From a virus (Duplodnaviria > Heunggongvirae > Uroviricota > Caudoviricetes), in the IMG/VR virus record IMGVR_UViG_2529292874_000013, positions 1 to 4,617 of that record: DNA of 4,617 nt. One strand, given 5' to 3'. Below the pieces are notes generated by a model, which did not search any database, was not told the DNA's origin, and worked only from the letters and a program-made list of their open reading frames with translations. How positions within the stretch are numbered: position 1 is the first letter of the stretch; every line of letters starts with the position of its first letter. The translations under genes and the position numbers were made by a program. Shown piece after piece: positions 1 to 4,617 of this stretch.

Positions 1-1477
1 CGAGCATACGGAATTCAACCGTCTGCTGGGGCTGGGGAATGAACTGCTTCAGCAGCGTCAGGGACTGGTGAATGTACCGTTACGGCTGCCGCAGGCCACC
101 CTGGATGATAAACAGCAGAGTGCCCTGACAAAAACAGAGCGTGAGCTGGCCCTGTCCAGACTGAAAGGGGAAGAAAAAGAGCGTGTCCGACTGGGGTATG
201 CGGCGGATGACCTCGGTTTTGTGGGTGATCCGTATCAGGAGGCGAGACAACGTTATATCAGTAATGCCCTGGAAGCCTGGCGCAATAACGAGGCGAATAA
301 ACCCAAATCCCGGGGTGGAAAATCAGAGACGGAAAAAGCGGAAGACAGTTTTTCCCGGCTGCTGAAGCAGCAGAAAGAGCAACTGGCACTGGTGGGGCAG
401 AATACAGAGCTGGCGAAGCTGAAATACCAGACAGCGCTGGGTGAACTGAAAACCCTGACGGAGATGCAGAAGCAGGAACTGCTGCGTAACGCGACCCTGA
501 TTGACCAGCAAAAAATCCGGGAACAGTTGCGATCCCGGGAAGAGACACTGAAGAATGAGAATGCGGCTGCGCGTGCGTCGAATGATGCTGAACTGCTGGG
601 GTACGGGCAGGGGGAGCGAGCCAGAGAACGCATGCGGGAGTTGCAGCAGATCCGCGACAGCTTCCGCCAGAAGGATGCGGACCTTCAGTCTCAGTATCAG
701 ACCGGGGATATCAGTGAGGATTTTTACAGACAGGCTCTGGCACAGAACGCGCAGTATCTGAGCGAACGCCTTAAGGACCAGGCAGTCTTTTATGCCGAAT
801 CGGATGTGCAGCGTGCGGACTGGCAGAAAGGGCTGCAGGAGGGATTCAGTAACTGGGTGGATAATGCGTCCGATTACGCCTCACAGGCAGCACAGCTGGC
901 GACGGAGGGTATCTCAGGGATGGTGAATAACATCACGGAGATGCTGAACGGAAATAAAGTGGAATGGCGCAGCTGGGCCTCATCAGTGCTGCAGGAAATA
1001 TCAAAAGTTCTTATGAATGCCGCGATTGTCAACGGAATTAAGACGGCGGCAAACGGTATGTCCGGTGCGGGAGGATTTCTCGGCAGCATTGGTGACTGGC
1101 TGGGCGGAGCGGTGGCCAATGCAAAAGGCGGCGTGTATACCTCGGCAAACCTGAGCGCGTACAGCAACAGCATTGTGGACACGCCCACGTACTTTGCGTT
1201 TGCAAAAGGGGCCGGGCTGATGGGGGAAGCCGGACCTGAAGCTATTATGCCCCTGACCCGGGCGGCGGATGGCTCGCTGGGCGTACGCGCCGTGGGCAGT
1301 ATGAACGGCAGTGCTGGTCTGGTGTATTCCCCGGTCTACCACATCGCCATTCAGAATGACGGGGCTAACGGACAGATAGGGCCGGAGGCGGCAGGCAGTC
1401 TTGTGCAGCTGATTGACCAGCGGGTGCAGGCGGTGATGCTGTCCATGCGACGTGACGGAGGAATGCTGAGTGGCTGA
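1..1477 (+). CDS. H: Tail length tape measure protein (lambda gpH-like), C-terminal portion; the 5' end lies upstream of the window
   Basis: The frame is open from the window edge (no stop in codons 2..67) to TGA at 1475-1477; the GTG at 68 used by the ORF track is only the first in-frame start inside the window. The N-terminal part is charged and Q/E/K/R-rich (coiled-coil-like), and the C-terminal part is Gly/Ala-rich, as is typical of tape measure proteins. It sits immediately upstream of M-L-K-I-J in lambda-like synteny, and its stop overlaps the M start. Confidence 0.85.
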   Translation, partial: EHTEFNRLLGLGNELLQQRQGLVNVPLRLPQATLDDKQQSALTKTERELALSRLKGEEKERVRLGYAADDLGFVGDPYQEARQRYISNALEAWRNNEANKPKSRGGKSETEKAEDSFSRLLKQQKEQLALVGQNTELAKLKYQTALGELKTLTEMQKQELLRNATLIDQQKIREQLRSREETLKNENAAARASNDAELLGYGQGERARERMRELQQIRDSFRQKDADLQSQYQTGDISEDFYRQALAQNAQYLSERLKDQAVFYAESDVQRADWQKGLQEGFSNWVDNASDYASQAAQLATEGISGMVNNITEMLNGNKVEWRSWASSVLQEISKVLMNAAIVNGIKTAANGMSGAGGFLGSIGDWLGGAVANAKGGVYTSANLSAYSNSIVDTPTYFAFAKGAGLMGEAGPEAIMPLTRAADGSLGVRAVGSMNGSAGLVYSPVYHIAIQNDGANGQIGPEAAGSLVQLIDQRVQAVMLSMRRDGGMLSG

Positions 1478-1811
1478 GATAAAAACGCTGCATCTGGTCC
1501 CGCGTGAAGGGATGCAGGTGAGTGAGAAGCCGTCGGTGGTGAGGGTGCGGTTTGGTGACGGTTATGAACAGCGCCGCCCCACAGGGCTGAATCCTCAACT
1601 GAAGACGTTTCAGGCGGTGTTCCGGGTGACGGATGAGTCAACCCGGCGCTGGCTGGATGAATTTTTATCCTGGCATGGTGGTTACCGTGCCTTTTTGTGG
1701 CGACCGCCGAAACATAACCGGACGGTGAGGGTGGTGTGCCGGGAGTGGAGCGTCACGGATAACGCCCGGTACAGTGATTTCAGCTGTACGATTGAGCAGG
1801 TGGTGAACTGA
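1470..1811 (+). CDS. M: Minor tail protein M (lambda gpM-like), 113 aa, GTG start
   Basis: The translation (VAEIKTLHLVPREGMQVSEKPSVVRVRFGDGYEQR...FSCTIEQVVN) matches my recollection of lambda gpM (VRFGDGY motif, C-terminal EQVVN). The GTG start at 1470 is preceded by a GGAGG Shine-Dalgarno at about 1456-1461 and overlaps the H stop by 8 nt. The stop TGA at 1809-1811 overlaps the L start as ATGA. Confidence 0.9.
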   Translation: MAEIKTLHLVPREGMQVSEKPSVVRVRFGDGYEQRRPTGLNPQLKTFQAVFRVTDESTRRWLDEFLSWHGGYRAFLWRPPKHNRTVRVVCREWSVTDNARYSDFSCTIEQVVN

Positions 1812-2508
1812 TGCAGAATATTCATGAAGAAAGCCTGAACGAGTCGGTTAAATCAGAGCAGTCACCGCGGGTGGTGCTCTGGGAAATCGACCTGACGGTG
1901 CAGGGCGGTGAGCGGTATTTTTTCTGTAATGAGCTGAATGAAAAAAGGGAGCCGGTGACCTGGCAGGGGCGGAATATCAGGCATACCCGATTGACGGCAG
2001 CGGCTTTGAGATGAACGGGAAGGGCAGCAGTGCCCGCCCGTCACTGACGGTGTCCAATCTGTTCGGTCTTGTCACCGGGATGGCGGAGGATTTGCAGAGC
2101 CTGGTGGGTGCCACGGTGGTCCGCCGCCGGGTGTATGCGCGTTTTCTGGATGCGGTGAACTTTGTGGCAGGCAATCCGGAGGCCGACCCGGAGCAGGAGC
2201 TGACTGACCGGTGGGTGGTGGAGCAGATGTCATCGCTGACGGCCATGACGGCCTCGTTTGTGCTGGCCACACCGACCGAGACGGACGGGGCGCTGTTTCC
2301 CGGTCGCATCATGCTGGCGAACACCTGTATGTGGACCTACCGCTCTGATGAGTGTGGTTACACGGGCGGGGCTGTGGCGGATGAGTTCGATAAACCCACC
2401 ACCGATATCCGTAAGGACAGATGCAGCAAGTGCATGCGCGGGTGTGAGATGCGCGGCATGGTGGCTAATTTTGGCGGTTTCCTTTCCATCAATAAACTTT
2501 CGCAGTAA
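1811..2508 (+). pseudogene. L: Minor tail protein L (lambda gpL-like) interrupted by an apparent single-base deletion near 1970-1975; either a pseudogene or a sequencing error
   Basis: ORF 1811..2014 (MQNIHEESLNE...VVLWEIDLT...GERYFFCNE...PVTWQGR) and ORF 2011..2508 (NGKGSSARPSLTVSNL...FGGFLSINKLSQ) together reproduce a full gpL-like protein. In the other frame from 1972 the sequence reads EYQAYPIDGSGFEMNGKG, which is the expected continuation after WQGR. The two halves sum to 698 nt, so adding one base restores a 232-aa ORF. The break lies in the G-rich stretch caggggcgg(g)aatat. Confidence 0.8.
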
Positions 2509-2518
2509 ATCCTGGTTT

Positions 2519-3262
2519 ATGACACAGACTGAATCAGCGATTCTGGTGCATGCCCGGCGGTGTGCGCCTGCGGAGTCGTGCGGCTTCGTGATAGGCACCC
2601 CGGAGGGCGAACGGTACCAGCCCTGCGTGAATATCTCCGCAGAGCCGGAGGCGTATTTTCGTATTGCGCCGGAAGACTGGCTGCAGGCAGAGATGCAGGG
2701 GGAGATTGTGGCGCTGGTTCACAGCCACCCTGGTGGTCTGCCCTGGCTGAGCGAGGCCGACCGGCGGCTGCAGATAAAGAGTGCACTGTCCTGGTGGCTG
2801 GTCTGCCGGGGGGAAATTCATAAATTCCGCTGTGTGCCACATCTGACAGGACGGCGCTTTGAGCACGGGGTGACGGACTGTTACACGCTGTTCCGGGATG
2901 CCTACCATCTGGCGGGAATTGATATGCCGGATTTTGAGCGTGAGGATGACTGGTGGCGTAACGGTCAGAACCTTTACCTGGACAATATGGCGGTCACAGG
3001 CTTTTACCGGGTGCCCCTGTCCTCTGCACAGGCGGGCGATATCCTGCTGTGCTGCTTTGGCGCATCGGTGGCCAATCATGCCGCCATATACTGCGGCAAC
3101 GGTGAACTGCTTCACCATCTGCCTGAACAACTGAGTAAACGGGAGAGGTATTCCGAAAAATGGCAACGACGAACGCATTCAGCCTGGCGTCACCGCCACT
3201 GGCACGTATCTGCCTTCACGGGGATTTGCAACGATTTGGCCGCCGCCTCAGCCTGTATGTGA
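2519..3262 (+). CDS. K: Tail tip assembly protein K (lambda gpK-like) with an N-terminal JAMM/MPN metalloprotease-like domain and a C-terminal NlpC/P60 cysteine peptidase-like domain
   Basis: ATG at 2519 starts MTQTESAILVHARRCAPAESCGF..., 10 nt after the L stop (2506-2508). A JAMM-type motif HSHPGGLPWLSEAD (H-x-H-x7-S-x2-D) is present, followed by an NlpC/P60-like Cys (GVTDCYTLF) and His (NHAAIY). The 2258..2518 part of the six-frame ORF is an upstream read-through that overlaps L in another frame. Confidence 0.88.
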   Translation: MTQTESAILVHARRCAPAESCGFVIGTPEGERYQPCVNISAEPEAYFRIAPEDWLQAEMQGEIVALVHSHPGGLPWLSEADRRLQIKSALSWWLVCRGEIHKFRCVPHLTGRRFEHGVTDCYTLFRDAYHLAGIDMPDFEREDDWWRNGQNLYLDNMAVTGFYRVPLSSAQAGDILLCCFGASVANHAAIYCGNGELLHHLPEQLSKRERYSEKWQRRTHSAWRHRHWHVSAFTGICNDLAAASACM

Positions 3263-3837
3263 ACACGGCAGCGGAAGCCATCCGGGCGCTGTCGTTACAG
3301 GTGCCGGGATTCCGCCGTCAGATGAACGAAGGCTGGTACCAGATACGTATTCGCGGTGAGGACACGGCACCGGAGGCGGTGTACGCCCGTCTTCACGAAC
3401 CTCTGGGTGAGGGGGCGGTCATCCATATTGTGCCGCGACTGGCCGGAGCCGGAAAGGGCGGACTGCAGATTGTGCTGGGGGCAGCAGCCATCGTGGGCTC
3501 TTTCTTCACCGCCGGCGCAACGATGGCGTTGTGGGGCGCAGCCCTGAGTGCCGGAGGGCTGACTGCCACCACGATGCTGTTCTCACTGGGTGCCAGCATG
3601 ATACTGGGCGGTGTGGCCCAGATGCTGGCACCGAAGGCAAAAACACCGGATTACCGCGCAACGGATAACGGTAAACAGAACACGTATTTTTCGTCACTGG
3701 ATAACATGATTGCCCAGGGGAACCCGATGCCGGTGCCTTATGGTGAAATGCTGGTTGGTTCACGACGGATATCCCAGGACATCAGCACCCGTGATGAGGG
3801 CGGAGACGGGAAAGTGGTGGTTATCGGGCGGGGATGA
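3160..3837 (+). CDS. I: Tail tip assembly protein I (lambda gpI-like), 225 aa
   Basis: The translation (MATTNAFSLASPPLARICLHGDLQRFGRR...AVIHIVPRLAGAGKGG...GNPMPVPYGEMLVGSRRISQDISTRDEGGDGKVVVIGRG) matches my recollection of gpI, with an N-terminal ubiquitin-like region and a C-terminal Gly/Ala-rich hydrophobic stretch. The start overlaps the K 3' end by 103 nt in a different frame. A GGAGAGG Shine-Dalgarno lies at 3142-3148. Confidence 0.9.
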   Translation: MATTNAFSLASPPLARICLHGDLQRFGRRLSLYVNTAAEAIRALSLQVPGFRRQMNEGWYQIRIRGEDTAPEAVYARLHEPLGEGAVIHIVPRLAGAGKGGLQIVLGAAAIVGSFFTAGATMALWGAALSAGGLTATTMLFSLGASMILGGVAQMLAPKAKTPDYRATDNGKQNTYFSSLDNMIAQGNPMPVPYGEMLVGSRRISQDISTRDEGGDGKVVVIGRG

Positions 3838-3875
3838 AAATAAAAAAATCCCGCAGAGTTAGCGGAGCTGCGGGA
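3837..3875 (-). terminator. Inverted repeat (stem 3849-3856 / 3868-3875, tcccgcag / ctgcggga) whose T-tract is on the minus strand (the + strand A-run at 3837-3848); a possible minus-strand intrinsic terminator or RNA structure
   Basis: An 8-bp perfect stem with an 11-nt loop is read directly from the sequence. On the minus strand the hairpin is followed by atttttttatttt. On the + strand it overlaps the Shine-Dalgarno of the small ORF at 3883. Confidence 0.35.
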
Positions 3876-3882
3876 GAGAACG

Positions 3883-4002
3883 ATGAAGATTAACGTTATG
3901 GAGTTATTTTTCAGGCATCAAAAAAGTAATGCAGCGTCATTATTGCGGCTACAGGCAATTGCCGGAAATGTGAAGAGTTTCAGAAATTTTATTCCGTCAT
4001 GA
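3883..4002 (+). CDS. Hypothetical small protein, 39 aa (MKINVMELFFRHQKSNAASLLRLQAIAGNVKSFRNFIPS), in the AT-rich segment between I and J
   Basis: ATG at 3883 is preceded by GGGAGAG (3872-3878) at a 4-6 nt spacing, and the ORF ends at TGA 4000-4002, immediately before a strong hairpin plus T-tract terminator. The region is visibly AT-rich compared with the flanking GC-rich tail genes. I recognise no homolog, and the ORF is too short for the sequence alone to establish that it is coding. Confidence 0.3.
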   Translation: MKINVMELFFRHQKSNAASLLRLQAIAGNVKSFRNFIPS

Positions 4003-4004
4003 CA

Positions 4005-4035
4005 CAGGCACCCTCCGGGGTGCCTGTTGTTTTCT
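4005..4035 (+). terminator. Rho-independent terminator: 9-bp GC-rich stem (caggcaccc / gggtgcctg), 4-nt loop (tccg), then T-tract ttgttttct
   Basis: Stem 4005-4013 pairs perfectly with 4018-4026, the loop is 4014-4017, and the T-rich run 4027-4035 follows directly. It sits 3 nt after the small ORF stop and about 40 nt upstream of the J start. Confidence 0.65.
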
Positions 4036-4061
4036 GGCATAAACAGATTCAGACATCAGAC

Positions 4062-4072
4062 AGGAGAGGGGG
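4062..4072 (+). promoter_or_regulatory. Purine-rich Shine-Dalgarno region (aggagaggggg) for J
   Basis: AGGAG and a G-run lie 6-11 nt upstream of the GTG at 4078, which opens the MGKGGGKGHTP-type N-terminus. Confidence 0.5.
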
Positions 4073-4077
4073 ACAGA

Positions 4078-4617
4078 GTGGGTAAAGGGGGCGGCAAGGG
4101 GCACACGCCGGTAGAGGCAAAGGACAATCTTAAGTCCACGCAGATGATGAGCGTGATTGATGCCATTGGTGAAGGGCCGATTGAAGGTCCGGTGAAGGGG
4201 CTGCAGAGTATCTGGTGAACAAAACCCCGCTGACGGACACGGACGGTAATCCTGTGATACATGGTGTGACAGCGGTCTGGCGCGCCGGGGAGCAGGAGCA
4301 GACACCACCTGAAGGCTTTGAGTCCTCCGGAGCTGAAACCGCACTGGGCGTGGAAGTGACGAAGGCAAAGCCGGTGACGCGCACCATTACGTCCGCGAAC
4401 ATTGACCGCCTGCGGGTCACCTTCGGGGTGCAGTCACTGTTGGAGACCACCTCAAAGGGCGACCGTAATCCCTCTTCTGTCCGACTGCTGATTCAGTTGC
4501 AGCGTAACGGTAACTGGGTGACGGAAAAGGATGTCACCATTAACGGCAAGACCACCTCGCAGTTTCTGGCGTCGGTGATTCTGGGTAATCTGCCTCCCCG
4601 TCCTTTAACATCCGGAT
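4078..4617 (+). pseudogene. J: Host specificity / tail tip central fibre protein J (lambda gpJ-like), N-terminal fragment running off the window, with an apparent frameshift near 4209-4215; either a pseudogene or a sequencing error
   Basis: From GTG 4078 the translation is (M)GKGGGKGHTPVEAKDNLKSTQMMSVIDAIGEGPIEGPVKGLQSI, then a stop at 4216-4218. A second frame from about 4212 continues LVNKTPLTDTDGNPVIHGVTAVWRAGEQEQTPPEGFESSGAETALGVEV...TSANIDRLRVTFGVQSLLETTSKGDRNPSSVRLLIQLQRNGNWVTEKDVTINGKTTSQFLASVILGNLPPRP to the window end. Both parts match my recollection of the lambda gpJ N-terminus (MGKGSSKGHTP...KDNLKSTQ...EGPIEGPV...AGEQEQTPPEGFESSG...SANIDRL...KGDRNPS). Restoring one base in atc(c)tgg rejoins the frames. 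Confidence 0.8.

Follow-up and report, generated by a model that had tools for sequence, protein, structure and literature searches.

We found that the minor tail protein gene L of a prophage contig from E. coli O157:H7 str. G5101 is divided between two reading frames by one missing base, and that this split is very probably an artefact of the draft assembly, in which a repeat was collapsed into a single consensus, rather than a mutation by which the prophage would be disabled. We infer the collapse from three single-base losses, one in L and two in J, that fall on positions at which copies of the same module differ from each other. The window analysed here, 4,617 bp long, corresponds to contig AETX01000178.1 in its full length (assembly GCA_000187285.4), which belongs to the draft of G5101, and the draft genome of this strain is cited in PMC7175801 as that of Rump et al. 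2011.

The tail-tip module and the frame break in L

A lambdoid tail-tip module, H-M-L-K-I-J, lies on the + strand and fills the whole contig (Table 1). The module is repeated, with 7-12 places per O157 chromosome and some 9-12 near-identical copies per O157 genome, and the exact M protein of the window was found in several copies inside single complete genomes; a multi-copy element has here been assembled as a short separate contig. That L holds the place between M and K is clear from the order of the open reading frames, from the Pfam families of its neighbours and from the annotation of its relatives, the close ones being annotated as 'phage minor tail protein L' in prophages of O157, O55, O145 and O26 and in Stx phages.

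Table 1. Features of the window AETX01000178.1, with positions counted from its first base.
Feature	Positions	Strand	Observation or evidence
H (tape-measure), 3' part	1..1477	+	runs off the contig start; intact, frame 2; ORF list
H product			Pfam PF06120 and PF09718
M (minor tail protein, 113 aa), intact	1470..1811	+	ORF list, PF05939
L as deposited	1811..2508	+	split at 1970-1974
L 5' fragment, 67 codons	1811..2014	+	first 54 gpL, last 13 out of frame
Frame break	1970..1974	+	CGGAA in the window vs CGGCAA, CGGGAA or CGTGAA in real copies
L remainder, frame 1, 178 codons and stop	1972..2508	+	PF05100 profile 40-206
K (JAB/NlpC-P60 tail-tip protein, 247 aa), intact	2519..3262	+	ORF list
I (tail assembly protein), intact	3259..3837	+	ORF list, PF06805
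I-J spacer, 240 bp	3838..4077		
J, first 540 nt	4078..4617		runs to the contig end
J first fragment, 46 codons	4078..4218	+	ended by the missing base at ~4211
J continuation, frame 3	4212..4617	+	third missing base at ~4603, 14 nt before the contig end

Frame 2, entered at the ATG at 1811, reads ...EPVTWQGR and then NIRHTRLTAAALR up to a stop at 2012-2014, which gives 67 aa in total, and frame 1 from 1972 reads EYQAYPIDGSGFEMNGKG... and ends in ...SINKLSQ before the stop at 2506-2508; gene callers place the start of this second frame at the ATG at 2011. Since the codons CGG (1970-1972) and GAA (1972-1974) share G1972, exactly one base is missing within 1970-1974. L thus measures 698 nt in the window and is broken, vs 699 nt (232 aa) in its intact relatives, all of which carry it as one open reading frame. 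When the base is restored, the 232-aa protein matches Pfam PF05100 (Phage_tail_L) with 304 bits and an E value of 4e-91, over positions 3-206 of the 206 in the profile, and the two fragments as deposited cover profile positions 3-29 and 40-206. The initial annotation, made from the letters of the window, had described a gpL-like gene that switches from frame 2 to frame 1 and that regains a 232-aa open reading frame upon restoration of one base, and in these respects it was right: the frames read as it described, with the break within 1970-1974, the restored product spans PF05100 end to end, and the comparison with homologues gives the same length as in the 699-nt relatives.

The closest well-known counterpart is gpL of lambda, with which the window shares the order H, M, L, K, I, J, the overlap of the M stop with the L start in ATGA and the C-terminal cysteines (C..C..C...C), the restored product having 232 aa and the whole PF05100 profile. 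The window is unlike lambda in that its L gene is split by one missing base, and also in its 240-bp spacer between I and J; to our knowledge lambda has no such spacer.

Several features of the module deserve a description of their own. The spacer (3838-4077) contains two terminator-like hairpins, one on the - strand (3866-3850) and one on the + strand (4004-4027), with a T run after each, and a 39-codon open reading frame at 3883-4002. Its folding z-score is about -3 whichever strand is folded, and no Rfam family matched anywhere in the window at E values up to 0.1. Z1486 and one of the PV15-279 prophages have this same spacer letter for letter, other copies have very divergent versions with indels, and it could be a slot for a small moron or an sRNA. 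Between L and K, an insert of about 1.7 kb with arc and an anti-repressor gene (ant or bro) is present in the copies L013, L016, L017, L020 and L021 (~6040-7760), and the window has no such insert. In K, a compensated pair of one-base indels lies at 2617-2623, 6 nt apart relative to Z1486 and with substitutions clustered around it; as several real copies have the same arrangement, this is true allelic variation and no error. At the very start of the contig, positions 1-2 read CG, whereas the 11 real copies that extend this far all have TC, a mismatch that is probably contig-end noise.

Three single-base losses at positions that differ between prophage copies

The window has three bases fewer than its best match in a complete genome, O157:H7 Z1486, to which it is 97.9% identical. 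At site 1 (1972, in L), removal of the variable base from GGGGCGG[C/G]AATAT gives the window's GGGGCGGAATAT. The GGGG run at 1966-1969 is intact there, and what was lost is the base that follows CGG, a variable one that is C in most copies (Arg-Gln, as in lambda) and G in others (Arg-Glu), with CGT-GAA as a third allele among real copies (CGTGAATAT). At site 2 (~4211, in J), AGTAT[T/C]CTGG minus its variable base gives AGTATCTGG, the Z1486 copy reading AGTATTCTGG, and at site 3 (~4603, in J), CGTCC[T/C]TTTAAC minus its variable base gives CGTCCTTTAAC, so that the window has CCTTT vs CCCTTT or CCTTTT in real copies. At all three sites, either allele turns into the exact window sequence once its variable base is taken out.

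The key alignment set the window against 12 real copies. Exactly three of its columns lack a base in the window alone, no column has an extra base in the window alone, and the real copies are polymorphic at each of these three gaps (C/G, T/C and C/T). As polymorphic columns make up 9.66% of the alignment, the chance of such a three-for-three coincidence is about 9e-4. Paralogous copies from single genomes were collected through the exact M protein, from CP051816.1 (L013-L016), from CP018241.1 of strain 319 (L017-L020) and from CP168979.1 (L021-L022), and within CP051816.1 site 1 reads C, G, G and C in L013-L016 and site 2 reads C, T and C in L014-L016. The homopolymer runs of 5-7 bases all have the same length in the window as in real copies (25 of 25), a pattern unlike that of plain homopolymer error. 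The losses track differences between copies and not run length.

Relation to the prophages of PV15-279 and mosaicism

The closest complete genome is PV15-279, a closed O157:H7 genome of the same beta-glucuronidase-positive lineage as G5101. Its prophage at 2.09 Mb (L143) has the same sequence as the window from 3 to 1926; past that point 137 positions are different and the spacer contains many indels. Its prophage at 1.18 Mb (L146), whose H/M type is another one and whose alignment with the window begins only at 1792, has the same sequence as the window from 3302 to 4270 once the base missing at 4211 is set aside. Outside these stretches each of the two is strongly different from the window, and set beside this nearest relative, the contig is a patchwork in which two or three different prophages, if not more, are represented. 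In both prophages L is whole, at 699 nt. At site 1 the two read CGGGAA and CGTGAA, at site 2 they read ATT and ATC, and the frame breaks of the contig sit where these prophages differ.

Other measures of mosaicism were less telling. A greedy tiling by exact matches to 140 real copies divides the window into 15 segments and the real copies into 3-15, which is no sign of excess mosaicism in the window, and a sharp rise in between-copy divergence at the contig ends was looked for and not found. We also considered site 1 as the junction of a chimera, with one allele type (A) to its left and another (B) to its right, and dropped this because real copies exist that have the same 41-nt flanks plus one base, which means that the switch of type at site 1 is no evidence of a chimera. 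The 517-nt piece of L and the 740-nt piece of K have no 100% match in complete genomes (best 99.4% and 99.5%), which fits a mixed consensus and equally a private allele.

Probable collapse of near-identical prophage copies into one consensus

We consider that reads from several near-identical prophage copies would have been merged into one consensus. A substitution between copies would alter the lengths of the neighbouring base runs, and a consensus that keeps the shorter version of each run would lose the variable base. Two routes could lead there, namely averaging in flow space, or gapped alignment columns that give no base a majority, and the same loss would have happened three times, at 1972 in L and at 4211 and 4603 in J. 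G5101 was reportedly sequenced on the 454 platform. We infer this mechanism of consensus building from the pattern of the losses, which coincide with positions differing between copies at three sites out of three against a background of 9.66%.

The likeness to known collapsed-repeat consensus errors is close: the contig is short and consists wholly of a multi-copy element, and it shows single-base losses only, placed where copies differ and with the shorter adjacent run kept. Drafts of O157 are known to fragment at homogeneous lambdoid prophages (PMC7175801), and the public G5101 sequence is without the stx genes that the strain was reported to carry (PMC6256406), which together indicate that prophages are poorly represented in the G5101 draft.

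Searches for the deleted forms and the case for a genuine lesion

The main competitor to a collapsed consensus is a genuine 1-bp deletion, private to G5101, that inactivates L, possibly together with real frameshifts in J, and that leaves the prophage without its own tail tip. We regard this as improbable, though it is the alternative to be taken most seriously. The break is, after all, present in the deposited sequence, J is annotated as frameshifted in the complete genomes PV15-279 and MB41-1, and an amber codon interrupts L in three independent drafts; since the tail genes of O157 prophages do suffer genuine damage, a lesion in the window is not implausible a priori. What weighs against it is that three independent 1-bp deletions would be needed within 4.6 kb, each on a paralog-variable column (the ~9e-4 coincidence above), and that H, M, K and I are intact, no other signs of decay having been seen in the window.

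The searches for the deleted forms weigh against it as well. The 41-mer that spans the loss in L was absent from all 13,950 places recovered in 4,199 complete E. coli genomes, where the best match was 41/42, every top match had the extra base and the band at 99% or above was empty. For the two deleted J forms (43-mers), none was found in complete genomes, the best match being 43/44 among ~6,100 places for each. A deleted 23-mer across the L break was not found in any IMG/VR viral contig, and the intact form of L occurs in at least 120 of these contigs (103 with C and 17 with G), 0 of which have the window's versions of the two J sites. The 67-aa L product, deposited as EFX07090.1 under the name of E. 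coli O157:H7 str. G5101, occurs in AETX01000178.1 only, by exact look-up in a collection of 15 billion proteins. The lesion is thus not reproduced in related genomes, being absent from PV15-279 and from all other complete genomes, and independent assemblies are free of these indels with one exception, at site 2. This is CAJVAO010000001.1 (L003), which also encodes the 46-aa first J fragment that results from the site 2 loss. L003 is a chromosome-scale sequence of 5.52 Mb in which H, L, K, I and J lie in many pieces because of single-base homopolymer indels; it was probably built from long reads without polishing, and as it is so rich in errors, the J fragment that it has in common with the window lends no support to a real lesion.

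Lesions of other kinds were observed in relatives of the window. In L004 (2950-2955), L005 and L006 (BGBG01000217.1, BGAF01000132.1 and BIEC01000119.1), codon 52 of L is an amber, TGG CAG having become TGG TAG, 18 nt upstream of the window's break and followed by the same 165-aa downstream open reading frame; this looks like a genuine nonsense lesion of another lineage. In the closed PV15-279 genome, J of the 1.18-Mb prophage (L146 ~4818; NZ_AP018488.1, J 1186642-1190119) is annotated as frameshifted, and comparison with an intact J places an inserted GT ~630 nt into its sequence, just past the point that corresponds to the window's end. The tail-fibre gene that adjoins J in this prophage is annotated as frameshifted as well, and the prophage may be truly tail-defective. 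Many lambdoid prophages of O157:H7 reportedly carry inactivating mutations, as studies of the Sakai prophages are said to have established. This pool of defective prophages is of the same organism and prophage kind as the window, but the lesions just described in relatives recur in closed or independent assemblies, whereas the L break of the window is found in one draft contig and on a paralog-variable column.

Unlikely alternatives: sequencing error, gene conversion and programmed frameshifting

We give little credence to a plain random sequencing error, a miscall or a homopolymer under-call at low coverage with no relation to the multi-copy nature of the module. Relative to the best-matching PV15-279 copy, sites 2 and 3 do shorten short runs (CC to C and TTTT to TTT), and the same positions have gone wrong elsewhere, in the error-rich L003 at site 2 and in the IMG/VR UViG L124, where one base has dropped out of the same CCC/TTT junction of J at 3349-3368 (CGGCC-TTTAAC); errors at this junction seem to arise in more than one data set. 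A random error does not, however, predict that three losses of three fall on paralog-variable columns, and at site 1 the commonest allele (CGG-C-AA) has the lost base outside any run. The 25 longer runs are all correct, although runs of 5-7 bases are the most error-prone for such chemistries, and in this the window is unlike the homopolymer and flow-space errors of the pyrosequencing era, its long homopolymers being unaffected. As a sole cause, random sequencing error is unlikely.

A slightly slimmer chance still attaches to the idea that all three losses are real and arose in vivo, through gene conversion between co-resident prophages that formed heteroduplex mismatches at variable positions, with faulty repair turning these into 1-bp deletions. 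If this were true, recombination between prophages would itself be a source of the tail-gene pseudogenes of O157:H7. Least credible of all, and rejected here, is a programmed -1 ribosomal frameshift that joins the two L frames as in lambda G/GT, likewise a tail gene with two overlapping frames: re-reading one base after CGG would indeed give the full protein, but no X XXY YYZ slippery heptamer is present at CAG GGG CGG AAT (1964-1975), L is a single 699-nt open reading frame in every relative examined, so that no relative keeps the two-frame layout, and the two breaks of like kind in J would have to be explained away in the same manner.

A collapsed consensus therefore remains the reading that we favour, and it bears on the interpretation that the initial annotation had attached to the break. 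A sequencing or assembly error had been named there as an alternative, and the evidence strongly favours that option; it had been held equally plausible with a genuine lesion, a balance that is upset by the two further losses in J, which it did not mention, by the paralog-variable columns on which all three losses lie, by the absence of the deleted version from every other genome searched and by the nature of the window as a short repeat contig that stands alone in a draft. The suggested slip in the G run did not survive either, as GGGG and all 25 runs of at least 5 bases are correct and the dropped base is one that differs between copies. What stands of that interpretation is the gpL identity, the loss of one base, the 232-aa open reading frame and the error option.

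Implications for the tail genes of O157:H7 prophages

On this reading the split of L does not belong to the biology of the phage, and its value lies mainly in the caution that it provides. The products EFX07090.1, EFX07091.1 and EFX07094.1 ('minor tail protein' and 'putative host specificity protein') are fragments made by the assembly, and AETX01000178.1 is unfit for calling a G5101 prophage defective or for counting pseudogenes; the conclusion of the initial annotation that a cryptic or defective prophage might be at hand cannot be drawn from this record. For repeat-rich drafts in general, single-base losses on paralog-variable columns, found while long homopolymers are correct, offer a diagnostic. 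If the lesion were real after all, one of some ten lambdoid prophages in one strain would be without its own tail tip, which is ordinary for O157. G5101 has many lambdoid prophages, and these can provide tail proteins in trans. Most likely, however, the underlying G5101 prophages carry intact 232-aa L genes.
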